A DNA stretch of 34,486 bases, taken from a virus (lineage: Duplodnaviria; Heunggongvirae; Uroviricota; Caudoviricetes). The position numbers and the translations under genes were made by a program. The stretch lies in IMG/VR virus record IMGVR_UViG_2645727868_000009; one strand, 5' to 3'. Shown here one piece after another: positions 24,855-34,486 of this stretch; positions within the stretch are counted from its first letter, which is position 1, and each line of letters starts with the position of its first letter. The notes under the pieces are model-generated. The model was not told where the DNA came from, made no database searches, and worked only from the letters and a program-made list of their open reading frames with translations.

Positions 24855-25322
24855 TTAATCAAAAAGCCCCACCTGGGTGGGGCTTTTCAGCGAAGTCTGT
24901 TTTTGTCGTCGGTGTATCAGTTGCCATGCGTACCGGTCTGAAATGCCGTAACGGGGACAGAGCAGTGCCAGCGCCTGCCGGTGTGAGCATCCGCCTTTTA
25001 CATGCTGCTGTAAATCAGCCATAAAACGGGTGTTACGCAGGGCACGTAACGCATGATCGCAACGGGGAATGTAAAACGGTGCGCCGCCAAGAAAACGGAT
25101 CAGTTTGTTGATTTCGTCTTCGGTCAGCACGTCATGTAACAGGGCATGGACACCGCCGGTGCGTTCGGCGTGTACGCCGGTTTTACCGCTTAACGTCACG
25201 CCACCAAAAGAACGAATCAACCGGGTCAGGGCGGGGAAGCCAATCACGCTAATCAGTTGCTGCACGGAATCGGGCAGCAGTGCCTGCGCATCGCGAAGAT
25301 CTGTTTCACTGAAGGTCTGCAT
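24855..25322 (-). CDS. Mor/C-family transcriptional activator
   Basis: 155-aa ORF, ATG start with GGAGA RBS; contains the GGxxxYIPR motif (FLGGAPFYIPR) and C-terminal helix-turn-helix-like segment characteristic of Mu Mor/C activators. Confidence 0.8.
   Translation of the reverse strand: MQTFSETDLRDAQALLPDSVQQLISVIGFPALTRLIRSFGGVTLSGKTGVHAERTGGVHALLHDVLTEDEINKLIRFLGGAPFYIPRCDHALRALRNTRFMADLQQHVKGGCSHRQALALLCPRYGISDRYAWQLIHRRQKQTSLKSPTQVGLFD
24861..24887 (-). terminator. Bidirectional terminator-like hairpin overlapping the Mor/C stop codon
   Basis: Perfect GC-rich inverted repeat GCCCCACC/GGTGGGGC flanked by AAAAA on one side and TTTT on the other; the minus-strand U-tract precedes the stop. 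Confidence 0.5.
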
Positions 25323-25351
25323 GATGGCGTCTCCGGTAGTAACTTACTGTT

Positions 25352-25357
25352 ATTATA
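25352..25357 (-). promoter_or_regulatory. Candidate -10 hexamer of a promoter for the Mor/C-family gene
   Basis: Perfect TATAAT on the minus strand 30 nt upstream of the Mor/C ATG, with a poor -35 region (CTGTAC at 17-bp spacing) and the terminator dyad just upstream. Confidence 0.4.
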
Positions 25358-25384
25358 GCCATACATGATCGCCTGTACAGACCA

Positions 25385-25409
25385 TAAAAAACCTCCGCGT
25401 TTGCGAAGG
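25385..25409 (-). terminator. Rho-independent terminator after the secreted-protein gene
   Basis: Minus-strand RNA forms a 7-bp stem with one G-U pair (CCUUCGC-AAAC-GCGGAGG) followed by UUUUUU; lies 13 nt after the stop at 25422. Confidence 0.6.
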
Positions 25410-25421
25410 TTTTTGTTCATA

Positions 25422-25760
25422 TTATTTTTTATTCTCGTTTATCAACACCAGGTATCCTCTGACATACTCCCATACTTTCTGGTTATCTGTTGGATGCACT
25501 TTTCGACAATCTATGGCTTCATTTCCATAATCGCCAATGTCAGCTTGGGCTTGTGTTAAGAGAATAACCTTCCTGAGAGCGCATCCTCTGATGGTATCCT
25601 TTGAAATATCATCCCAGCCATTCATGTATGAATAAGCCAGATTACGTTGTGCCTGATAATCGCCCTGTAATGTTTTTTTGACCAAATCTTCCTCTGAATC
25701 AGAAGCATGGGATATCCCTGTAAAACATAAAGTCAGAATAAGTAATAACAGTTTTTTCAT
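25422..25760 (-). CDS. Secreted/periplasmic hypothetical protein
   Basis: 112-aa ORF, ATG start with AAGGAGA RBS; N-terminal signal peptide (MKKLLLLILTLCFTGISHA); followed by an intrinsic terminator. Confidence 0.55.
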   Translation of the reverse strand: MKKLLLLILTLCFTGISHASDSEEDLVKKTLQGDYQAQRNLAYSYMNGWDDISKDTIRGCALRKVILLTQAQADIGDYGNEAIDCRKVHPTDNQKVWEYVRGYLVLINENKK

Positions 25761-26152
25761 TTACGTCTCCTTGAATCTTTAACCAGCGCCACCATCACTC
25801 CAAAAAGCTGTTCATCCGTCAGCCATTCGATCACATGTTGCTTATACATGTGAGATGCCAGTCCTTCTGCATACGCCCAGGAACGACCGGCATCAGCCAG
25901 CAACGCTTCAATTTTGGATAATACTGATTTTCTGCTCATTGCAACACGAGGGCGGCGACCTTTACCAGCGGGTGCCTTGCGCGGGAATCCCTGTTCGTGC
26001 ATGTATTCCCGGATGATGCGCAGTTCATCGAGATTGCAGCGTGTGGTGCTGGTTTTACCGGTCAGGCGGGCCAGCGTCTGGCGATAAAGGGCATCATCCC
26101 ACCCCAGATACGCCTGACCAGCTTTAATGGCCCCGATCATCTTTTTCAGCAT
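25757..26152 (-). CDS. gemA: GemA-like protein (Mu gp16-like)
   Basis: Start set to ATG at 26150-26152 (GAGGA 8 nt upstream); track ORF extends to 26251 via non-ATG start. Sequence YLGWDDALYRQTLARLTGKTS...LRIIREYMHEQGF recalled as GemA/DUF1018-like; location just upstream of Mor/C gene as in Mu. Confidence 0.65.
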   Translation of the reverse strand: MLKKMIGAIKAGQAYLGWDDALYRQTLARLTGKTSTTRCNLDELRIIREYMHEQGFPRKAPAGKGRRPRVAMSRKSVLSKIEALLADAGRSWAYAEGLASHMYKQHVIEWLTDEQLFGVMVALVKDSRRRK

Positions 26153-26402
26153 GTTTGTTATCCTCAAAACGCACGGTAAAACGTGAAACGCCAATCCCTG
26201 ACAAGAACGCAGCGGCACGGTCAAGAGACAACCACGTCTTGTAATCGCCACGGCGTTCCTGTAGAAAATAGGACACCCCGGCGCGGCGATTCACAGCGAA
26301 GAGATGATACACACCACCGAACCGCTGCACGACGAACTCATCCACGCCACCGCTTTCAGCCTGTTGCCGAAAGGCTGCCATTCCGATTTGTTCAATCTTC
26401 AT
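26124..26402 (-). CDS. Hypothetical early protein
   Basis: Start set to ATG at 26400-26402 (track start 26411 is TTG). Preceded immediately by two tandem palindromic units (see regulatory feature). Confidence 0.45.
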   Translation of the reverse strand: MKIEQIGMAAFRQQAESGGVDEFVVQRFGGVYHLFAVNRRAGVSYFLQERRGDYKTWLSLDRAAAFLSGIGVSRFTVRFEDNKHAEKDDRGH

Positions 26403-26405
26403 AAT

Positions 26406-26448
26406 GACCAAAACACTACTTTTGGCAGACCAAAAAACATGTTTTGGC
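26406..26448. promoter_or_regulatory. Two tandem 21-bp palindromic units (candidate operator)
   Basis: GACCAAAA-N-TTTTGGC at 26406-26426 and 26428-26448, each with perfect CCAAAA/TTTTGG arms and a 6-bp spacer; centres ~22 bp apart; they end 4 bp from the start of the 26124-26402 gene. Confidence 0.5.
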
Positions 26449-26556
26449 CTGCATTTGATTACTGTTTAAACAACTCGCGAAATCAGGAACGTCGAGTTTC
26501 GGTGATGGCTTTCATCGTGTTGTTGCTCCGTGATTCAGAAAATTTCATGCCGGGCC

Positions 26557-26967
26557 TCAGTATGTGAAATAGACAGTTGCCACGCCGTTATAGTGATCAA
26601 ACGACACGGCGTTTACCTCATAACTGGCCGGTAGCTTCGAGCCAAGAACGTATCCGGGCCACGTTTTCCATGGAATTTCTCTGCTCCCACTGTCGCCATA
26701 TACCGTACATCCCAGTGAGCCTACAGCTTCATAAGAACGCTTACCGCACGTTATGAATCCCAGATTTTGCTTACTGCTCTTAATGGTGATTGAGTGAACG
26801 CTGGCTGATGCATTAGCAGCACGCTGTGCCTGTTGGTTTGCGATATTCGCAGAGTTCGCAGCAGCTACAGCAGCCGTAGTCGCGGCGGTAGAGGCTACAA
26901 TAGCTGCTGAAGCATGCACTTGTTGGATATTCACCAACAATGCCGCGATAAAAATCATCTTCTTCAC
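26557..26967 (-). CDS. Secreted hypothetical protein
   Basis: 136-aa ORF; GTG start at 26965-26967 with AAGGAG 7 nt upstream (alternative ATG at 26958); signal peptide, Ala/Asn-rich low-complexity linker, Cys-containing C-terminal domain. Confidence 0.5.
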   Translation of the reverse strand: MKKMIFIAALLVNIQQVHASAAIVASTAATTAAVAAANSANIANQQAQRAANASASVHSITIKSSKQNLGFITCGKRSYEAVGSLGCTVYGDSGSREIPWKTWPGYVLGSKLPASYEVNAVSFDHYNGVATVYFTY

Positions 26968-27665
26968 TTGTCAGCTCCTTTGCGAATCTGTTCCGCCCAT
27001 TCTTCAAGGGATTTCTCCGCATATTCACCAGACAGGCCATCAATCGGATGCGCTTCATTAGCCAACTCTTCTTTCGCTGACAAAATCATGCGTGTAACGT
27101 CGAAAACTTCACGCAAAGACTTATTGATAAATCCGTGATTGAACGCAGCAGCAAGACGGCTTGCGGTGTAGTTAATCCCCTCGTTGCGTGCCTCCGCACG
27201 TATTTCAGCCAGGAAAGCATCGGTGGCTGGTGTTTCAGGTATCTGTCTCCTCATCCGTTCTATTGCATGATTGAACCCGAAGTCTTCCGCGAGAGATACG
27301 TCATCCATATTGTCATTGTCATCTTCAATATCCCGTGATTCTGGAATTGCAGACTTTATTCCCGCACTCTCCGCTGCCAGCGCCGCACGACAGGCCTCCA
27401 GTTCAGCAATACGCTTGTTTTGGGCTTCCCGCTCATCCAGTAGTGCCTGTACTACTTCAGGGTTGAAAGCTGCGATATAACGAGCGTTGTTCTCTGCGTT
27501 TTCCTGTCCATCAAAGCCGGTCCATTTGATAACGTCTTCACATCGTTTATCACCGGGTGTATGCACCGCATATGTACCAGTACCCGACGAAATAAATGCG
27601 ACCCATTCGCCTTGTGTTGCCTTTTCTGCCGCCTCACGCAGTGCCTGATAGTTAATTTTGCTCAC
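26964..27665 (-). CDS. Ead/Ea22-like protein
   Basis: Start set to GTG at 27663-27665 with AGGAGG exactly 6 nt upstream (in-frame ATG at 27683 also possible); acidic coiled-coil-containing protein with N-terminal YQALREAAEKATQGEWVAF segment recalled from Ea22-like proteins of enterobacterial prophages. Confidence 0.5.
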   Translation of the reverse strand: MSKINYQALREAAEKATQGEWVAFISSGTGTYAVHTPGDKRCEDVIKWTGFDGQENAENNARYIAAFNPEVVQALLDEREAQNKRIAELEACRAALAAESAGIKSAIPESRDIEDDNDNMDDVSLAEDFGFNHAIERMRRQIPETPATDAFLAEIRAEARNEGINYTASRLAAAFNHGFINKSLREVFDVTRMILSAKEELANEAHPIDGLSGEYAEKSLEEWAEQIRKGADK

Positions 27666-28026
27666 GGGTTGCCTCCTGTTCATTTCCCTTGTTCAGTTTT
27701 CGTCTGCATACAGCGCAATCATCGGGGCTTTCGAAGCTGTCTGGTTCGCGTTCACCAGAGTACATCCATCTGCGGCAGATACTGGTTACTTCATTCTCGG
27801 CAAAATAATGATATTTTTTCGACCTGGCTGGTCTGCCCCATCCAGCTGTTCTCTCGCTCACATCACGTTTTAATCCCCCCGCGCGGACCTCCTTTAGCTC
27901 CAGAAGGGCCAGCCTCAGAAGCGTCCACCACTCACTGTCTGCAACCGGCTCCATATCAAGCGCTCTGTCAGCATCAGCAATCAGTCTGGTCAGGCTCTTA
28001 TCGCTTATTCTGGTTTGCTGGCTCAC
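27652..28026 (-). CDS. Hypothetical protein
   Basis: Start set to GTG at 28024-28026 with AGGAGG 6 nt upstream (ATG at 28044 also possible); the junction is a near-identical copy of the one in front of the Ea22-like gene. Confidence 0.4.
   Translation of the reverse strand: MSQQTRISDKSLTRLIADADRALDMEPVADSEWWTLLRLALLELKEVRAGGLKRDVSERTAGWGRPARSKKYHYFAENEVTSICRRWMYSGEREPDSFESPDDCAVCRRKLNKGNEQEATREQN
27660..27685. repeat. 26-bp direct repeat at a gene junction (copy 1)
   Basis: GCTCACGGGTTGCCTCCTGTTCATTT; contains the AGGAGG RBS and GTG/ATG start region of the Ea22-like gene; one mismatch to copy 2. Confidence 0.7.
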
Positions 28027-28312
28027 TGGTTGCCTCCTGTTCATTTTTTTCATTCCGGTACACAAGAATTACGACATCTCCCCGGGTAATTACGCGTGCG
28101 GGGTCGCCCTGTTGCATATGGTCAATATCAAACGCGTCATTAAACGCATTTAGCGCCTTCGCGCGCTTGTCTTTACAACGACGTTTTTCACGCTGCTTAA
28201 AGAGCGAAGAAATCAACCACCTGAATGACATAAAAGTGATATAGCCATAACCGATAAGCGCCAGACCTGTATTCATGGCTACATCTATCGTTATCGTTTT
28301 ATCAATGACCAT
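27998..28312 (-). CDS. Hypothetical membrane protein
   Basis: 104-aa ORF, ATG start with AGGAGG 6 nt upstream; one predicted transmembrane segment near N-terminus. Confidence 0.4.
   Translation of the reverse strand: MVIDKTITIDVAMNTGLALIGYGYITFMSFRWLISSLFKQREKRRCKDKRAKALNAFNDAFDIDHMQQGDPARVITRGDVVILVYRNEKNEQEATSEPANQNKR
28021..28046. repeat. 26-bp direct repeat at a gene junction (copy 2)
   Basis: GCTCACTGGTTGCCTCCTGTTCATTT; same junction architecture in front of the 27652-28026 gene. Confidence 0.7.
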
Positions 28313-28532
28313 TGCCAGCCTCCTGTTTTGCCACTTTAAACGCCCGTAACATCGGGACCGTTTTACCGCTGATGACAGTGTTCATAACAATACCGATTCC
28401 ACTGTGATGTAACGCTCCCGGTGCAACAAACAGCGCAGCATCTACAACTCTGAAGTAACGGTGGAACTCCCAGAACCAGCAAGAAATAGTGATAGTTGCG
28501 GTGACCCCATGGTCATAAAATTCAATTTTCAT
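28302..28532 (-). CDS. Hypothetical protein
   Basis: 76-aa ORF, ATG start, weak RBS; stop overlaps next gene's RBS. Confidence 0.35.
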   Translation of the reverse strand: MKIEFYDHGVTATITISCWFWEFHRYFRVVDAALFVAPGALHHSGIGIVMNTVISGKTVPMLRAFKVAKQEAGNGH

Positions 28533-28756
28533 TTGCAGTTAAACCTTCTCTTATGACGTTCTACGGCAGCCTTCATATTGTTGTGCACGGTTCTTTTAAT
28601 AATCCGACGTCCCACACTGTCATAGAACCGCCACCGGGAAGCCCCCGGATATCCGGGGAACTCAACCACCGCGCTACCGTCATTCATCCTGTATTCGTGG
28701 CGTTCTCCGGGCGGCTGGTATATTGCTTCGGTAACACTGAGAAGTTTAAAAGCCAT
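28529..28756 (-). CDS. Hypothetical protein
   Basis: 75-aa ORF, ATG start with GGAGG upstream. Confidence 0.4.
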   Translation of the reverse strand: MAFKLLSVTEAIYQPPGERHEYRMNDGSAVVEFPGYPGASRWRFYDSVGRRIIKRTVHNNMKAAVERHKRRFNCK

Positions 28757-28758
28757 CG

Positions 28759-29469
28759 TTACACCCTCCCCAGTGCCAGCGGTCTGTTGCTCTGACCATT
28801 AACCCCCTGATGCAGTCTGGCGTTTTTCCCGGCGATAAAACCGGCTGTAGCGGCAAACTCTGCACCTCGACACGCTTTAGCTGTGCGCATATCCCCGTCG
28901 CGTAGCCCCTTAGTGCTGTGCAGGTTCTTTCTGTAAAGCTCAAGGCGGCTTTTTTCTTCCGGGGAGACGTCATACACCGCAATGACATCACGGGCACCAA
29001 AGACCCAGCCTTCGCAGAACTGGTCGCCACGGGCTACCCGCGTGGACGGACCACAACGTTTGCAGTGTTTATCCTGATATTTCTTGCGCTCTGCCATCAT
29101 CTGACGGGAAAGCACATCAAACGCGTAAGCCGCGATTTCCGGGCGGCTGTCAGAGCCATAAAAACGCACGTGACGTTTGAGTGAACCAGAAGCCCGGTAT
29201 TCGCCGGATATGTAACACTCGACACCGAAGGCTTTACAGACCAGGTCACACAGGATGTGCATATAACGCGGCGGTGTACTGGCATCACTCGGCGCACCCG
29301 CGCTGGCAGCTTCCTGAATGTCGAACAATTCAGCGTCGTTTTCGCTGATGCCATGCTGGCGCATATAAGCCTGGGCTTTTGCAATAGCGTTAGCGGCTTC
29401 TTCCGGGCTTGATGTTCCTCTGGCAAGGCGTAACAGTTTTTTGATTTTGGCAATGTATTTATCTTTCAT
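28759..29469 (-). CDS. DUF2786-like phage protein
   Basis: 236-aa ORF, ATG start; N-terminus (IAKIKKLLRLARGTSSPEEAANAIAKAQAYMRQHGI) matches the helical motif recalled for DUF2786; Cys-containing C-terminal domain; function unknown. Confidence 0.5.
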   Translation of the reverse strand: MKDKYIAKIKKLLRLARGTSSPEEAANAIAKAQAYMRQHGISENDAELFDIQEAASAGAPSDASTPPRYMHILCDLVCKAFGVECYISGEYRASGSLKRHVRFYGSDSRPEIAAYAFDVLSRQMMAERKKYQDKHCKRCGPSTRVARGDQFCEGWVFGARDVIAVYDVSPEEKSRLELYRKNLHSTKGLRDGDMRTAKACRGAEFAATAGFIAGKNARLHQGVNGQSNRPLALGRV

Positions 29470-29747
29470 GGTCGTCTGAACCTCAGCATCCTGAATTCTG
29501 AATTACGCAACTTCCGGCACGGCCTTCAGGAACGTGGGGAGTTCGTTCTGGCTGCGGCGCTGGATGAACATCTGCCGTCGATTGAGAACTGGTCGCAAGA
29601 CGATTAAAACAAACGATTGTCAGATTAATTTCGCGGGCGAATTTTTTTTGCTTAGCGATATTCATAAATAAACTTCCTCAGATTCAGGCGTAAGCCAGCC
29701 CCGGCGGGTTTACGCCTGTTTTAAATAACAATTAAAAACAAATTAAA

Positions 29748-29939
29748 TTAATGCGGTTCTTTCAGTGTTTCGACTTTTACGAAATAAGGCTCGACATTAA
29801 TTTCAACCACACAACCACATTTAAAATCTCTGGCAGGTGAAACGGTTTTCACCACACGACCACCACGCAACGCCGGATGTGCAGTGTGCATGAAGCGAGT
29901 CCCTACCGGATACTGCTTATTAAAGTTCTTCGCATTCAT
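29748..29939 (-). CDS. Hypothetical protein
   Basis: 63-aa ORF, ATG start, weak RBS; overlaps upstream gene end. Confidence 0.3.
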   Translation of the reverse strand: MNAKNFNKQYPVGTRFMHTAHPALRGGRVVKTVSPARDFKCGCVVEINVEPYFVKVETLKEPH

Positions 29940-30153
29940 GGCGTGGCTTCCATCCTTTCAGGTGAGCATTAGCACAGAACTCGGCCCGGTGTTCCGCCCA
30001 GATGCGGCGCAGGGTGCTACACGGGCTTTGTGCTGCCTTACGCCACAGCTTTTCAGCCTCGGCATAATCGCCGCGTTGTTCTGCTCTGGACGCGCCCAGC
30101 GAATACGCCGCGCAACTATTTCCGGCTCTGTACTCTTTGATATCCTGATGCAT
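29920..30153 (-). CDS. Hypothetical protein
   Basis: Start set to in-frame ATG at 30151-30153, 1 nt after the upstream gene stop; the track ORF extends to 30243, overlapping the upstream gene. Confidence 0.4.
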   Translation of the reverse strand: MHQDIKEYRAGNSCAAYSLGASRAEQRGDYAEAEKLWRKAAQSPCSTLRRIWAEHRAEFCANAHLKGWKPRHECEEL

Positions 30154-30154
30154 G

Positions 30155-30799
30155 TTAAACCCCTGCAATATCAAGCGGGATTGCGCGGTATTCAGCAGAA
30201 TCACCGACGCGCTCATACACGCGGATATAGCTTTTGCTGCCAATTACCTGGACGGCTTCACCAATCAGTTTCATGGCGTTATCCCAGCGTTCCTCCGTAA
30301 TATCGAGACGACGCAGAGCCAGAACGCGCCCGGTGTTAATGTTGCCTTCCTTGTCCGTGCTGAATGCTTCACTGATGATGGCTTTAATTTCAGGGCGCGC
30401 TCCTTCCGTCCAGTCAGCCAGACAGTCATCAATCAGTGCCTTCGCGGTCTGAATGCGTTCATCAAGCGCGATACGGTCCTGCATGGCGCGCTGAATCTTG
30501 TAACGCCCGTCAAAGCTGTAAAGTGTGATATTCCCTTTTTTACCGCCTTTCACAGCGCCGTATTTCTCCGCCGACAGGTCAATAAATGCCTGAATATCAC
30601 CAAACGCACGCAGTTTCAGTTCACGCAGTGAGGCAGAGGCAGCAATCACCATCTCCACAAGCTCACCGACCAGCTGCTCACGGTCGCGGTCAATATCTTT
30701 GATAAGACTTTCAGGCGTCATCACACCACGGGCATCAACCCAGTAGCCTTCCTGCACTTTATTTTTTGTATATTGCTTAACTTTATTTTCAGTCGTCAT
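30155..30799 (-). CDS. Conserved Mu-like early-region protein (DUF3164-like)
   Basis: 214-aa ORF, ATG start with GAGGT upstream. Family assignment is from memory only; not Mu Gam by sequence. Confidence 0.5.
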   Translation of the reverse strand: MTTENKVKQYTKNKVQEGYWVDARGVMTPESLIKDIDRDREQLVGELVEMVIAASASLRELKLRAFGDIQAFIDLSAEKYGAVKGGKKGNITLYSFDGRYKIQRAMQDRIALDERIQTAKALIDDCLADWTEGARPEIKAIISEAFSTDKEGNINTGRVLALRRLDITEERWDNAMKLIGEAVQVIGSKSYIRVYERVGDSAEYRAIPLDIAGV

Positions 30800-30828
30800 A
30801 ATTAAATTACCTCAGTGATATTTACAGA

Positions 30829-31044
30829 TTAATGTGTGTTATGTGCGCGAGGCGCAACATTTTCAGAAAAAAGATTCACGCCGTTATAGTCATTTCTGAG
30901 CGTTTCCTTGATAGCATCATGTAATCTTGTTGCCACCTGAAACTCCTTTTCGGAAGCTCCGTCCTTCGAATAACTCCCCGTGGTCTGGGTTAAAACACAG
31001 CCTTTTTCATCGGTATAGATAATTACTTCTAACTTAACCGCCAT
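30829..31044 (-). CDS. Hypothetical early protein
   Basis: 71-aa ORF, ATG start with strong RBS (AAGAGGAA). Confidence 0.45.
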   Translation of the reverse strand: MAVKLEVIIYTDEKGCVLTQTTGSYSKDGASEKEFQVATRLHDAIKETLRNDYNGVNLFSENVAPRAHNTH

Positions 31045-31056
31045 TCTGATTTCCTC

Positions 31057-31296
31057 TTATTGCCATACGACGGTGCAGCCGTCGATACAGGACGTTTTCA
31101 CCACGCGGCGCAGGCCGCTGAATGTCTGGATGATTTCCGTTACCGGCCATACAGGGCCGCCCACGGGCGGGCAGGCATAAACCACAGGTAAACGGTGATG
31201 TTGCCCAGTTACGCGACCGCCGGTGGTGTGGATGGCCACACGGGCACGGGAACGGACGGCGTTAATGGTCTGCTTGTCCATCATCTTGTTCTCCAT
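31057..31296 (-). CDS. Hypothetical early protein
   Basis: 79-aa ORF whose ATG overlaps the B gene stop (TGATG), implying translational coupling; occupies the position of kil in Mu but no sequence identity is claimed. Confidence 0.45.
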   Translation of the reverse strand: MENKMMDKQTINAVRSRARVAIHTTGGRVTGQHHRLPVVYACPPVGGPVWPVTEIIQTFSGLRRVVKTSCIDGCTVVWQ

Positions 31297-32189
31297 CAGT
31301 GAATTAACATTTCTGCGAATTTATCAATGGCCTGCACACTGACCGGTGCATCGCTGATATCACAAATCCGGTACACACCGCGCGCCAGTTTGAACAGGCG
31401 GCGGGCATTACCCAGTGAGCGTGCGTAGAGCGCCTCGCTGATTTCCGGTTCTGCTGCTTCCGGCATCAGCCCGGTAGCTATCTGGTTAAAATCTTCCTGC
31501 GACAGCGTATCGCCCAGGTTAAGCGCCAGCGCCACACGGCTGTATAACTGGGCGAACTCACCGCGACGTCCCTTGAGGTTAATCAGAAGGCGTGGCATAC
31601 CCGCCAGGACAATCCCGATACCCGCTTTGTCATGCAGACGGCGCAGAACCTCCAGTGCGCGATAGGGGAGCAGTTCAGCCTCGTCCACCATCAGCAGGCG
31701 ACCGGAATCACGCAGTTCTCGCACACATGCATCAATCAGTTCGTGGATATTGCCGCGAACTTTTACCCCCAGCTGGCGGCACAGCTCCTCAAGCAGTGTT
31801 CTGGCTGTATAGCCCGGGTCGGCTTCAATCAGGACCGCATCCCGGTTTCTGGCGGCGTATTCACGCAGAATCATTGTTTTGCCAAGACCTGCCGCGCCAT
31901 ACAGTACGCAGATTTCACATTCCAGGTGAGCATAGGCCAACACCTCCAGTCCTTTGGCAGCCATACCGGTGGCAACAAATTTCGCTTTAATACGGCGGCT
32001 GTTTTCCTTTTCCCGCTCACGGGTCACAAAGGCAGAAATGCGTTCTTCAATATCAGCCATATCGCCCTGATATTTACCCTGTAAATACTGGTTGATAACG
32101 GCGCTGCTACGACCAATAGCACGGGCGACGTGGGTTTGCGTATAGCCGCGACGGGCCATTACGTCATTTAATTGCGTAATTAAACTCAT
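31296..32189 (-). CDS. B: DNA transposition ATPase B (MuB-like)
   Basis: 297-aa ORF, ATG start with AAGGT RBS; N-terminal helix-turn-helix region, Walker A (GAAGLGKT) and Walker B (LLMVDEAE) motifs; directly downstream of transposase. Confidence 0.85.
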   Translation of the reverse strand: MSLITQLNDVMARRGYTQTHVARAIGRSSAVINQYLQGKYQGDMADIEERISAFVTREREKENSRRIKAKFVATGMAAKGLEVLAYAHLECEICVLYGAAGLGKTMILREYAARNRDAVLIEADPGYTARTLLEELCRQLGVKVRGNIHELIDACVRELRDSGRLLMVDEAELLPYRALEVLRRLHDKAGIGIVLAGMPRLLINLKGRRGEFAQLYSRVALALNLGDTLSQEDFNQIATGLMPEAAEPEISEALYARSLGNARRLFKLARGVYRICDISDAPVSVQAIDKFAEMLIH

Positions 32190-32207
32190 AATTAAATACC
32201 TTTTAAA

Positions 32208-34250
32208 TTAACGGTTGTTTGTGCCGTTTTTCTTTAAATTGCGTTCGCGTTCAGATGCGAATAAATAAAGTTCTTCTTTTTCCTTTTTCTCCAGGCGTTC
32301 CAGTCCATATCCCAGATTAAAGTCAGGCTTCTGCGTAATGGCCGGGGTAAGCTCGCGTTTAGCCTCTTCGATTTTCTGCGTGGCCCGTGCAATGCGGCCC
32401 TTGACGCGTTTCTCCAGTTTTTGTTCGATAACTGGTTTAGCGAAGGCATCAACCTTGTTACCGTTCCAGATGGCATCGCAGATATAAGAGCCATCAGCCC
32501 GCCGGACAATGACGCTGTTTGCATCATGAATATCGTAACTGACCCTGACTTCATTCCCGTGCTCTGCGGCCAGATCATATGAGTAATAAATATTGTTGAA
32601 TAACTGAATTTCCCCGCGAAATGTTTTGCGCGTCACTTCCGGCCTGAACATTTCATGCAGTTCTTCCGGCGACAGGAAATCAATTTCAACATTCTGCTCT
32701 TTTATCAGTTTCCGGCGATACGCTGCCGGGCTGTAATGCTCGCCATCCTCTTTGCGAGGAAGGCTGCTGTGTGGCCGGTTGTTATAGCGTCTGACCTCCA
32801 GCTCTATGGCTGCCATCAGTTGCTCAAAGGTAGGGATTTCATCCCTCGCCTTAACCTGCCGTTTTGTCAGCTCTTTCCCTTTGTGGGTGGCCTTAATGGC
32901 TGACTGCATAATCCGTTGCTGCATCATTACGGTTTCCTTGTCTGCATCCCTTGCGCAGTACGTTTGGAAACTCAGGGCCACGTCTTTGGGTATTTCCTTG
33001 TTAACCCTTTCAATCACCCCGCGCCCCTGCGGGTTACCTGGTATCCCCGTGTGATGTTCCACACCCAGACGGGGCAGAATCCCGGTAATATCGGCATCAA
33101 GCACCAGGTTTTTTTCGCCGCCCCCGTTATCGGAGTAATAAATCAGCGGTATCCCGTGCTGTGCCATGCCGTAACGTAACGCATCAGCAACGGCTATCAC
33201 GTTCTCCGACAGGGACAGTGACCAGCCCACAATAAAGCGTTGTCCTGCATCCATAACCAGCGTCACTTCTGGCCGGAAAATATTGCCGGTCAGGGGGTTA
33301 AACGCGGTCATTTTCATACAGTGACCATCCCCGACCCATACCGCATTAACCGGTAATGATGTCCACTCGCGCCGCACAAAGGGATTGAGCGAACGCCAGG
33401 CTGAACCTGTGGAGCGGAAACGCTCTTTAACAATCACCGGGACGCTGCTTAACACCCGTCTTACTGCGTGAACTGAAGGCAGTGCCGCCAGCATTCCCGC
33501 ATCGTTCGCGTGTTTTTCATGCCACCAGGCTGAAAACTCGCGATACGCATATTCAACGGTCGGGCGCTTCCATGAGCGATAGAACATAAAGAAATCGCTC
33601 AACCACCAGACCTGCTCCCACGGTGTTCCCTTATGATGACCGGGAGCCAGTAACGCCAGTAACTGATTGGCATCACCGCGCGCCATCACCCAGCTGGAGT
33701 ACCAACTATCCAGGCTGCCTGTGCTGACACCGGTTCGCTTTCCCTGACGTGCATTTGCAGTATTAGCTGCTTCGATAATGCGGTCAGGTAACGCCCCCAT
33801 GCGCACACCATCAACGATGTGCTTTAACGCGGCCTTCCTAGTCATTCCGGCGTATTCACGCAGTTTATGCACTTCAGTAGCCAGCAATATCCGCGCATCA
33901 GCGATGGCCTTTTGCTTGTCAGTCAGTGCCTGGACTTCGCGTAATGCCAGTTCCGGGCATTTGACCATCACCTCCAGTTCATCGCGAACGGCGACGTTTT
34001 TAACTGCCTTCTGCTCAACCTCGGCGGGCAGTTGCGTATCTTCCAGGACCTGATGGGTCAGGCGCTTACGTAAAACTTTCTGCGCTTCAGCGGGCAGGCA
34101 GTCGATGTGATACTCGAATGCTTTGGTGCCTTCACGCTTGCGCTTCCATTCCGGGTGCGTCTCTGTGATCCGATTGAGCGTCCAGCGCACCCCCTGAACT
34201 GTACCGGGCAAACCAGGAAGACCGGCCAGCTCATTGGCTGAATAAAACAT
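32208..34250 (-). CDS. A: Transposase A (MuA-like DDE transposase)
   Basis: 680-aa ORF, ATG start overlapping ner stop (TAATG); N-terminus ANELAGLPGLPGT parallels the Mu A N-terminal DNA-binding region; size and position match MuA. Confidence 0.9.
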   Translation of the reverse strand: MFYSANELAGLPGLPGTVQGVRWTLNRITETHPEWKRKREGTKAFEYHIDCLPAEAQKVLRKRLTHQVLEDTQLPAEVEQKAVKNVAVRDELEVMVKCPELALREVQALTDKQKAIADARILLATEVHKLREYAGMTRKAALKHIVDGVRMGALPDRIIEAANTANARQGKRTGVSTGSLDSWYSSWVMARGDANQLLALLAPGHHKGTPWEQVWWLSDFFMFYRSWKRPTVEYAYREFSAWWHEKHANDAGMLAALPSVHAVRRVLSSVPVIVKERFRSTGSAWRSLNPFVRREWTSLPVNAVWVGDGHCMKMTAFNPLTGNIFRPEVTLVMDAGQRFIVGWSLSLSENVIAVADALRYGMAQHGIPLIYYSDNGGGEKNLVLDADITGILPRLGVEHHTGIPGNPQGRGVIERVNKEIPKDVALSFQTYCARDADKETVMMQQRIMQSAIKATHKGKELTKRQVKARDEIPTFEQLMAAIELEVRRYNNRPHSSLPRKEDGEHYSPAAYRRKLIKEQNVEIDFLSPEELHEMFRPEVTRKTFRGEIQLFNNIYYSYDLAAEHGNEVRVSYDIHDANSVIVRRADGSYICDAIWNGNKVDAFAKPVIEQKLEKRVKGRIARATQKIEEAKRELTPAITQKPDFNLGYGLERLEKKEKEELYLFASERERNLKKNGTNNR

Positions 34251-34486
34251 TACGCCGCCTTACTGGCATACCGGCTTGGCCAGATCTCCGCAGGTTCCAC
34301 ACCAATAGCATCGGCTATGATGCGTTCATATTTAGGGCATGAGCGATACAGTGCATTTTTTAAAGAGTCTTTTTTTAGACCAGCGCGTTCAGAAAGTTCA
34401 CGCAATGTAAAACCTTTGGTGTGCACAGCGGCAACGATGTACTCGCGGTGCCAGTCTTTGTTCATTACTTCATTTCTAACCATCAT
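34250..34486 (-). CDS. ner: Ner-like DNA-binding protein
   Basis: 78-aa ORF at the window edge; DWHR and EIWPSRY segments parallel Mu Ner. The ATG at 34484-34486 is the last codon in the window, so the true start may lie upstream outside it. Confidence 0.75.
   Translation of the reverse strand: MMVRNEVMNKDWHREYIVAAVHTKGFTLRELSERAGLKKDSLKNALYRSCPKYERIIADAIGVEPAEIWPSRYASKAA

Follow-up and report, generated by a model that had tools for sequence, protein, structure and literature searches.

Positions 26557 to 29469 of a 34,486-nucleotide viral sequence (IMG/VR record IMGVR_UViG_2645727868_000009) hold a run of small genes, here named g7 to g1, in the early region of a Mu-like prophage. The whole sequence, which we call the window, matches the chromosomes of Escherichia coli Ec55 and SCAID WND1-2021 at 100% identity and represents nearly all of an ~36-kb prophage whose insertion splits the aminopeptidase gene ypdF. 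From comparisons with sister prophages and phage protein families, we think that this interval is probably a polycistronic piece of an early (Pe-type) operon, in which backbone genes are joined to independent cassettes and one cassette, g2, is a candidate inhibitor of OLD-type defense nucleases, and that it is not one system. The genes are as follows.

28759 to 29469, minus strand: g7, 236 amino acids (aa), DUF2786 plus DUF7168, a conserved early gene of Mu-like/transposable phages
28529 to 28756, minus strand: g6, 75 aa, basic (pI 10.3), a backbone gene
28302 to 28532, minus strand: g5, 76 aa, first member of the exchangeable pool
27998 to 28312, minus strand: g4, 104 aa, DUF4752, with a putative N-terminal membrane anchor
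27652 to 28026, minus strand: g3, a 124-aa fusion protein of an N-half module and a C-half belonging to phrog_2358
26964 to 27665, minus strand: g2, 233 aa, acidic (pI 4.7), with an Ea22/EaD module (aa 1 to ~85) and an EaE/Oad2 module (aa ~57 to 232)
26557 to 26967, minus strand: g1, 136 aa, with a predicted Sec signal peptide (ending VHA before S), an Ala-rich linker, and an ~80-aa two-cysteine C-terminal domain

The first-pass annotation, made from the sequence alone, had described one block of eight tightly coupled accessory genes. Its limits were exact, with the g1 stop codon at one end, the g7 start codon at the other, and everything on the minus strand, but only seven nonnested open reading frames (ORFs) were found; the figure of eight probably arose because the two modules of g3 had been counted apart. 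Two of the seven, g7 and g6, are conserved backbone of transposable phages. The tight coupling is borne out by the coordinates, as neighbors overlap by 4 to 29 nucleotides (nt) or lie 2 nt apart: a 2-nt gap separates g7 from g6, and overlaps follow of 4 nt at g6/g5 (ATGA), 11 nt at g5/g4, 29 nt at g4/g3, 14 nt at g3/g2, and 4 nt at g2/g1 (GTGA).

Sister prophages show how variable this block is. Between g5 and g1, six prophages with flanks 92 to 100% identical have six different arrays, listed here.

Window and Ec55 (L001): DUF4752, g3, Ea22
47-1826 (L002): the order of the window, with a shorter Ea22 (209 aa) and two extra small genes
160-11H1 (L004): like 47-1826, with an Ea22 of 162 aa and an added XF1762-family gene
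UMNF18 (L005): DUF4752, a 62-aa gene, a 58-aa gene
AH19B041 (L006): a 54-aa gene, Ea22
JNE21-009 (L007): a 62-aa gene, a 59-aa gene

Among the best E. coli matches, the span between the same flanks ranges from 2342 to 3935 bp, and presence or absence of cassettes in the sister prophages starts exactly after the conserved tail of g5. Both g4 and the EaE/Oad2 module are present in some sisters and absent from others. The six arrays in six prophages, together with the recurrence of the cassettes in lambdoid, P22-like, and P1-like phages, strongly support the earlier description of the block as mosaic. The XF1762-family gene (positions 2433 to 2927 of L004) is other cargo in such a sister array.

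These data bear directly on the idea that the block is one integrated multigene system, such as a toxin-antitoxin (TA) module or a defense system with interdependent parts. Tight coupling in translation would suit such a system, as would the small overlapping pair g6/g5 with its basic and its hydrophobic member, but gene content from g5 to g1 differs in every sister prophage, single genes occur alone in unrelated phages, and searches gave no significant PADLOC, TA, or NCBIfam matches. The comparative data largely refute an integrated system, and we regard it as extremely unlikely. The g6/g5 pair was also considered by itself as a toxin-antitoxin module and rejected, having no family match and with g5 occurring without g6 in lambdoid phages.

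What separates one cassette from the next is a short conserved joint, found at four successive boundaries.

28318 to 28327, minus strand: joint g5/g4, with the core AACAGGAGGC
28021 to 28046, minus strand: joint g4/g3, the same 26-mer as at g3/g2, 25/26 identical
27660 to 27685, minus strand: joint g3/g2, AAATGAACAGGAGGCAACCCGTGAGC, comprising the last g3 codons, a Shine-Dalgarno site, and the GTG start of g2
26976 to 27002, minus strand: joint g2/g1, GAATGGGCGGAACAGATTCGCAAAGGA, which encodes the ...EWAEQIRKG tail of the EaE module and overlaps the g1 Shine-Dalgarno site

The duplicated gene junctions seen in the first pass are real and consist of the 26-nt repeat at g4/g3 and g3/g2. This 26-mer, AAATGAACAGGAGGCAACCNGTGAGC, for which 0 matches would be expected by chance, combines the final codons of one gene (...NEQEAT...), an AGGAGG Shine-Dalgarno site, and the GTG at which the next gene starts. 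Junctions appear duplicated because conserved joints of this kind bound the cassettes. What look like "MNRRQPVS" N-termini are thus stretches of ribosome-binding site and not part of a protein. The 10-mer AACAGGAGGC has three occurrences in the whole 34.5-kb window, all at successive joints of the block. In IMG/VR the exact 26-nt joint was found in the same prophage type only, and a joint of the more general type ...AAAGGAGGCA(A/G)CC(A/C), continuing into GTGA..., stands in front of Ea22, DUF4752, and small genes not only in sister prophages but also in lambda, an Stx phage, and a P1-like phage. The 27-nt tail of g2, GAATGGGCGGAACAGATTCGCAAAGGA, travels further: exact copies occur in at least 120 IMG/VR contigs and are followed by at least 12 unrelated gene families. 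Among the matches listed, the next gene was Ea22-like in 38 cases, of the g1 family in 26, DUF4752 in 16, a 74-aa protein in 12, and a 77-aa Cys-rich protein in 6, with methyltransferase-like and other genes besides; no Mu markers were found at these loci among the matches listed.

We infer a double role for the joints, in the coupling of translation and in the exchange of cassettes by recombination at microhomology. At each boundary, the final codons of one gene are followed by an AGGAGG Shine-Dalgarno site, 6 to 7 nt, and a GTG or ATG start; this arrangement would couple neighboring genes in translation and, judging from the breakpoints, would supply the microhomology at which cassettes swap, insert, delete, or fuse. 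Modular exchange at boundary sequences is a classical idea for lambdoid phages, found in the module theory of Susskind and Botstein, and boundaries have been described for HK97/HK022 and HK620/Sf6. As in those phages, a conserved short sequence lies exactly at gene boundaries, different genes come after it, and genes are gained or lost there. The joints described here differ in that they span Mu-like, lambdoid, P22-like, and P1-like lifestyles and double as a Shine-Dalgarno site and GTG start, with exchange at them presumed.

The wider distribution of the genes divides them into two groups. The first-pass annotation had proposed looking for them outside Mu-like phages, and relatives of g5, g4, the C-half of g3, g2, and g1 do occur in non-Mu phages, whereas g6 homologues come from Mu-like phages only (Klebsiella and Pseudomonas). 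Homologues of g5 adjoin xis/int in Fels-1 and in Klebsiella prophages, g2-like genes lie in the exo-xis regions of Stx phages, and relatives of g4 and g2 occur in P22-like phages and side by side in a P1-like phage, where g4 adjoins an Ea22-like gene. The C-half of g3, an ~65-aa His/Cys3 domain, forms a gene of its own in Klebsiella, Shigella Sf11, Pbunavirus, and E. coli Mu-like phages, and g1 is present in ~40-kb non-Mu phage contigs and in lambdoid-type prophage fragments, beside Ea22/EaE-like genes. Judged by these relatives, g5, g4, g3, g2, and g1 belong to the accessory pool of the exo-xis/"ea" regions of lambdoid, P22-like, and P1-like phages. We envisage two layers, one in which g7 and g6 would be inherited along with the transposable-phage backbone and another in which g5 to g1 would be independent cassettes from an exo-xis/"ea"/recombination-proximal coliphage pool.

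The backbone layer is best seen in g7, which matches the Pfam families DUF2786 (5e-13, 49.1 bits against a cutoff of 23.9) and DUF7168 (3.5e-29, 101.7 bits against a cutoff of 25.5) in that order, so that the DUF2786-like protein noted in the first pass is present with DUF7168 in addition. Among 120 homologues listed, DUF7168 (PF23771) occurs in all and DUF2786 (PF10979) in all but a few truncated ones; full-length homologues extend across Enterobacterales and Vibrio, and 175 phage records carry homologues, mostly Mu-like phages of Pseudomonas and Ralstonia. Strong purifying selection acts on g7, with third-position-biased substitutions, and its matches in BFVD are only uncharacterized DUF2786 proteins from phages of Gram-negative and Gram-positive hosts. 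The neighboring g6 belongs to phrog_9400 (1.6e-39), is preceded by a GGGAGGG Shine-Dalgarno site, and has 8 of 13 substitutions at the third codon position. It is left unannotated by RefSeq/PGAP, as a 226-nt gap in the identical genomes and in all related genomes examined, although its sequence is present in UniProt. These two genes are backbone of transposable phages, without cargo character. They probably serve phage DNA metabolism, a role suggested solely by the position of DUF2786 genes in other phages, such as AXL1, where one lies inside the replication module (PMC9206674). DUF2786 is mentioned only in passing in the literature that we found.

The cassette that points most clearly to a function is g2. 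Its match to Pfam Ead_Ea22 (PF13935; 6e-37, 127.7 bits against a cutoff of 27) and its low pI agree with the earlier naming of an Ea22-like acidic protein, and 14 of its first 21 residues are those of lambda Ea22 (MSxINxQALREAAE); beyond aa 21 there is no similarity to lambda Ea22. The remainder of the protein has other relatives. Two PHROG families match g2, phrog_368 (6e-74) and phrog_614 (6.8e-54), and phrog_614 is also the best family of Oad2, which is HK446 gp27 (8.3e-53), and of P22 EaE (4.6e-55), whereas its profile gives no match to lambda Ea22 or P22 EaD. Residues 56 to 164 of g2 align with Oad2 residues 28 to 139 (of 175) at 35% identity over 122 aa (pairwise E value of 8e-10), and residues 88 to 230 align with P22 EaE at 36 to 43% identity (E values of 1e-14 to 4e-18). 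A coiled-coil segment, an ETPATDAFLAE[IVM]RA motif, and a Q[IL]RKG tail are common to g2 and Oad2/EaE, and phage matches to the C-terminal half of g2 carry the annotation "EaE." From the comparisons with phrog_614, Oad2/EaE, and Ea22, g2 therefore consists of an Ea22/EaD N-terminal module followed by an EaE/Oad2-family module, and it is a member of the EaE/Oad2 family.

Membership in this family suggests a mechanism. According to a preprint of July 2026, Oad2 rescues the toxicity of P2 OLD and abolishes OLD defense, binds OLD directly and blocks tetramer activation, and is related to P22 EaE, with EaD/Ea22 fusions occurring in some phages (bioRxiv 10.64898/2026.07.10.737580). By homology, g2 would most likely be a direct protein inhibitor of an OLD-type (ABC-ATPase/TOPRIM) abortive-infection nuclease, acting via its EaE/Oad2-family module. 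The two proteins are alike in the PHROG family, coiled coil, motif, and tail already named, in the modular early accessory region where g2 sits, and in the known fusion of the Oad2 module to EaD/Ea22. They differ in that the C-terminal third of g2 follows P22 EaE rather than Oad2, in the limited identity to Oad2, in the extra Ea22/EaD N-terminal module of g2, and in setting, a Mu-like early operon as opposed to a lambdoid recombination-module neighborhood; anti-OLD activity of g2 is, for its part, a prediction. The first-pass annotation had singled out this block as a likely home of antidefense genes. That suggestion now has one concrete point in its favor, namely that the C-terminal ~175 aa of g2 fall in the PHROG of Oad2 and P22 EaE, but the block is not the single entity then supposed. 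Our verdict is that the interval is an ordinary mosaic accessory region with one plausible antidefense candidate.

A different account takes its lead from the other half of g2. The cassettes could be modulators of lysis-lysogeny or host physiology, like the exo-xis genes of lambda and Stx phages, with g2 acting as Ea22 does, via a host partner. The strong Ead_Ea22 match and the shared N-terminus favor this account, as do the relatives of g5, g4, and g2 in exo-xis-like regions and reports that Ea22 of lambda and Stx phages favors lysogeny and has variable C-terminal domains that possibly differ in host target (PMC7093339, PMC10834534). Indeed, g2 shares with lambda Ea22 and P22 EaD, which are the PF13935 proteins of exo-xis regions, the N-terminal motif, the sequence of N-terminal domain, coiled coil, and variable C-terminal domain, and a terminal K/RG tail. 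Outside those first ~21 aa, though, g2 is unrelated to lambda Ea22, its C-terminal two-thirds group with EaE/Oad2 in a family that lambda Ea22 and P22 EaD do not match, and it resides in a transposable phage. The solved C-terminal domain of lambda Ea22 was not found by a PDB sequence search with g2. In Mu-like phages the lysogeny decision runs through the c/Ner switch, which lies upstream of these genes. We consider modulation unlikely, but it is the competitor that we would discount least, and the modulator and antidefense readings are not mutually exclusive.

Several points weigh against the interpretation of the interval as backbone plus cassettes with an anti-OLD candidate. The work on Oad2 is one preprint only, and in it P2 OLD was not inhibited by a homologue from HK75 that shares 54% identity with Oad2, which indicates high specificity (bioRxiv 10.64898/2026.07.10.737580); because that homologue fails, homology is no predictor of anti-OLD activity. 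Apart from the RKG tail, the last ~35 aa of Oad2 have no counterpart in the alignment with g2, and with only 35% identity over two-thirds of Oad2 and a different C-terminal end, g2 may act on a different target or on none. For Ea22 of the lambda type, the link that has been made is to a prolysogenic effect rather than to antidefense (PMC7093339). Recombination at the joints was deduced from breakpoints, and the joints may be conserved merely as strong ribosome-binding sites that overlap conserved protein termini. The fold of g7 has no match among solved structures, and the DNA-metabolism label is weak for that reason. Finally, Pfam, NCBIfam, PADLOC, and PDB searches yielded no functional clue for g1, g3, g4, g5, or g6.

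That last result agrees with the first-pass statement that nothing in the sequence identifies a specific system, since five of the seven genes remain without a functional clue. Pfam recognizes three of the seven products (g2, g4, and g7), an NCBIfam scan of all seven gave nothing usable, the only PADLOC-DB 2.0 match was that of g6 to "E2" at chance level (E value of 0.003, 15 bits), and PDB sequence searches with the seven proteins returned chance-level matches only. The earlier view that none of the genes has an assignable function thus holds for these searches but no longer for g2, by virtue of its EaE/Oad2 family. The expectation of an undescribed function fared less well, as at the sequence level nothing here is undescribed: all products are already public as hypothetical proteins, and several of the seven occur on at least 1,000 contigs among database deposits. 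Some part of the interval is matched by ~1,350 E. coli genomes, or about a quarter of the complete ones.

One might suppose instead that small ORFs of this sort have no function, being decaying filler or annotation noise. In favor of this, g6 is missing from RefSeq and g3 is shortened there, and several products have no Pfam family. All seven, however, match PHROG families with E values of 1e-13 or better (every one labeled "unknown function"), the ORFs are intact on up to at least 1,000 contigs, Shine-Dalgarno sites are strong and conserved, substitutions in g6 and g7 are third-position biased, and the antisense ORFs have no family support. Codon-position patterns show g6, g7, g5, and g1 to be under selection as coding sequence. 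Noise is accordingly a very improbable explanation.

Among the remaining cassettes, g1 is distinguished by its predicted export. It belongs to phrog_8805 (2e-85) and begins with MKK and a hydrophobic core that ends at VHA before S; the basic, hydrophobic, and AxA pattern and two cysteines recur in eight of eight distant homologues. The Ala/Thr/Asn-rich linker varies in length and is short or missing in distant homologues, and the domain that follows has two invariant cysteines and a conserved ...VATVYFxY end. Inspection and retention of the signal peptide in homologues confirm the earlier description of a signal-peptide protein with a low-complexity linker. At the sequence level, export of g1 is well supported by the signal peptide together with the conserved cysteine pair, from which we would expect it to act in the periplasm. 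The family is restricted to Escherichia, Salmonella, and Citrobacter (at least 66% identity, among 5.8 billion proteins), and an exhaustive HMMER search of 1.84 billion representatives gave ~9 full-length clusters and no informative domain fusions. A profile scan of genome contigs with g1 returned one uninformative locus. A g1 homologue 73% identical, with Ea22/EaE-like flanks, lies at positions 6001 to 6411 of L015, an ~40-kb non-Mu phage contig from Logan accession ERR3593526, and an EaE-type tail is followed directly by a g1-family gene in 26 of 119 IMG/VR contigs, a recurrent adjacency. We also considered whether g1 might be a miniature trimeric-autotransporter anchor, given its four predicted strands, C-terminal aromatic residue, and Ala-rich helix; this was rejected because distant homologues lack the Ala-rich stalk, YadA_anchor gives no match, and the cysteine pair is conserved.

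A periplasmic g1 and a membrane-anchored g4 could together provide superinfection exclusion or receptor masking during lytic growth. The conserved signal peptide and cysteine pair of g1 are compatible with this, and so is the portability of g1, which is found in unrelated phages. Its codon differences among sister prophages are mostly nonsynonymous (10 to 21, against 6 to 17 synonymous) and cluster in the signal peptide, the linker, and the start of the mature domain. The g4 product has a hydrophobic N-terminus followed by a K/R-rich stretch. Neither protein, on the other hand, matches a known exclusion protein in PADLOC, Pfam, or NCBIfam, g1 has no lipobox, no promoter-like site precedes g1 for expression in a lysogen, and the AF2 model of g1 is too unreliable to use (pLDDT 49). 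Exclusion by this pair therefore seems to us a poor prospect.

The "membrane protein" of the first pass is g4, a clear member of DUF4752 (PF15944; 1.6e-39, 134.2 bits against a cutoff of 27), for which we found nothing in the literature. One moderately hydrophobic segment, aa 14 to 38, with a maximum Kyte-Doolittle 19-residue score of 1.24, precedes the K/R-rich stretch, making membrane anchoring plausible but unproven. Upstream of it, g5 belongs to phrog_1001 (4e-29) and evolves faster than g7, with 15 to 21 nonsynonymous and 12 to 13 synonymous codon differences.

The g3 product is itself a small mosaic. RefSeq annotates only 27652 to 27861, the 69-aa C-terminal piece, whereas the frame is open back to AGGAGG-N6-GTG with a start at 28026, and the 124-aa form is in GenBank on at least 1,000 contigs. 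A full-length homologue, P0196 (120 aa, 80% identical), has both halves in one frame. The N-half is 63 to 68% identical to aa 112 to 163 of P0214 and aa 1 to 53 of P0205; elsewhere this module follows the coiled coil within Ea22-like proteins, and 102-aa proteins have it at their N-terminus. In the C-half (69-aa numbering), His18, Cys29, and Cys52 are invariant, and Cys49 is found in five of six family members and shifted in Sf11. This pattern lends weak support to the zinc ribbon suggested earlier, to which neither Pfam nor PDB adds a match. In a related Mu-like phage, Escherichia phage vB_EcoM-689R2, a TIR-like domain protein (positions 1 to 344 of L143) adjoins the homologue of the g3 C-half in the same region.

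The boldest interpretation that we entertained would extend the antidefense reading of g2 to the whole array. From g5 to g1, the genes would form a portable counterdefense toolkit circulating among Mu-like, lambdoid, P22-like, and P1-like coliphages, in which g2 would neutralize an OLD-family nuclease, triggered by the transposing phage via DNA ends or RecBCD interference, and g1, g3, DUF4752, and g5 would be antidefense or host-takeover effectors. We regard so general a claim as doubtful. Under the more restrained interpretation that we prefer, of backbone genes plus independent cassettes, the products would most likely act singly on the host, g2 possibly as an OLD-type nuclease inhibitor and g1 in the periplasm, and would be expressed only through read-through after induction or infection.

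We infer that the interval belongs to a single early transcript because of the ORF overlaps and four negative scans. Between 25700 and 30200, no sigma-70-like promoters were found, against 5.1 +/- 2.3 expected, and terminator-like sites occurred at chance-level frequency; an Rfam scan gave no match to RNA families, and antisense ORFs, including one of 227 aa, had no family support. Base composition sets the block apart less than had been thought: its GC content of 0.502 is below that of the late region (0.566), in keeping with the AT-richness remarked on earlier, but is the same as that of the early region overall (0.506).

Gene order across the prophage bears out the placement of the interval between the B-proximal genes and gemA, with MuA, MuB, DUF3164, and an ANR-family gene upstream and gp16/GemA and Mor downstream. 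The minus-strand order is as follows.

Early part: repressor and Ner-like HTH genes, MuA, MuB (AAA ATPase), two small genes, DUF3164, the ANR-family gene, two small genes
Rest: the interval g7 to g1, a 92-aa gene, gp16/GemA, an exported 112-aa protein, Mor, then lysis and late genes

The semiessential early region of phage Mu (kil, gam, sot, arm, lig, cim, gemA) is the same in its position between B and gemA/mor, its strand, its polycistronic operon, and its small, dispensable-looking genes. It differs in its backbone, since DUF3164 and DUF2786/DUF7168 in our prophage resemble B3/D3112-type and Ralstonia Mu-like phages. No product matches a Pfam, NCBIfam, or PHROG family annotated with a named Mu early function (Gam, Kil, and others), a comparison made through families and not directly with the Mu proteins. 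Across the early region, ~24855 to 34486, there is likewise no annotated Mu Gam or Kil homologue, with DUF3164 and DUF2786/DUF7168 present instead, as in B3/D3112-type phages. A DNA-level search among the sequenced isolates of the phage collection found no match to the backbone, so the lineage is known only as a prophage.

For the present, the region is mainly a source of candidates and of two annotation fixes, as g6 is consistently missed, and g3 cut short, in RefSeq annotations of this prophage lineage. The conserved joints offer a sequence handle with which to harvest the cassette pool from genomes and metagenomes, yielding a candidate list for antidefense screens. If g2 or its relatives do inhibit nucleases of the OLD type, the Ea22/EaE genes that are so common in E. 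coli prophages would gain the mechanism that they have long lacked, and Mu-like phages would join the carriers of anti-OLD factors.

Variation is also seen on both sides of the interval. Directly upstream of g7, positions 29470 to 29747 form a second variable spot that holds a 60-aa ORF without a PHROG match, and sister prophages have other genes or a plus-strand gene at the equivalent site; a 34-nt hairpin there (29685 to 29718, dG of -19.2 kcal/mol) is not significant (z of -1.55). Downstream, the 92-aa gene between g1 and gemA (26124 to 26402, minus strand; phrog_7844) is kept in all sister prophages and has a weak match, far below cutoff (E value of 0.003), to the ParC partition-associated family. 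The 112-aa product encoded between gemA and mor (25422 to 25760, minus strand; phrog_5882) is a second exported protein in a slot that varies, being taken by a different 158-aa gene in UMNF18 and empty in two other prophages. The ANR-family gene of the early operon (29920 to 30153, minus strand) encodes an Aar-like AraC negative regulator, and a phage-borne regulator of the ANR type could affect host virulence regulons.

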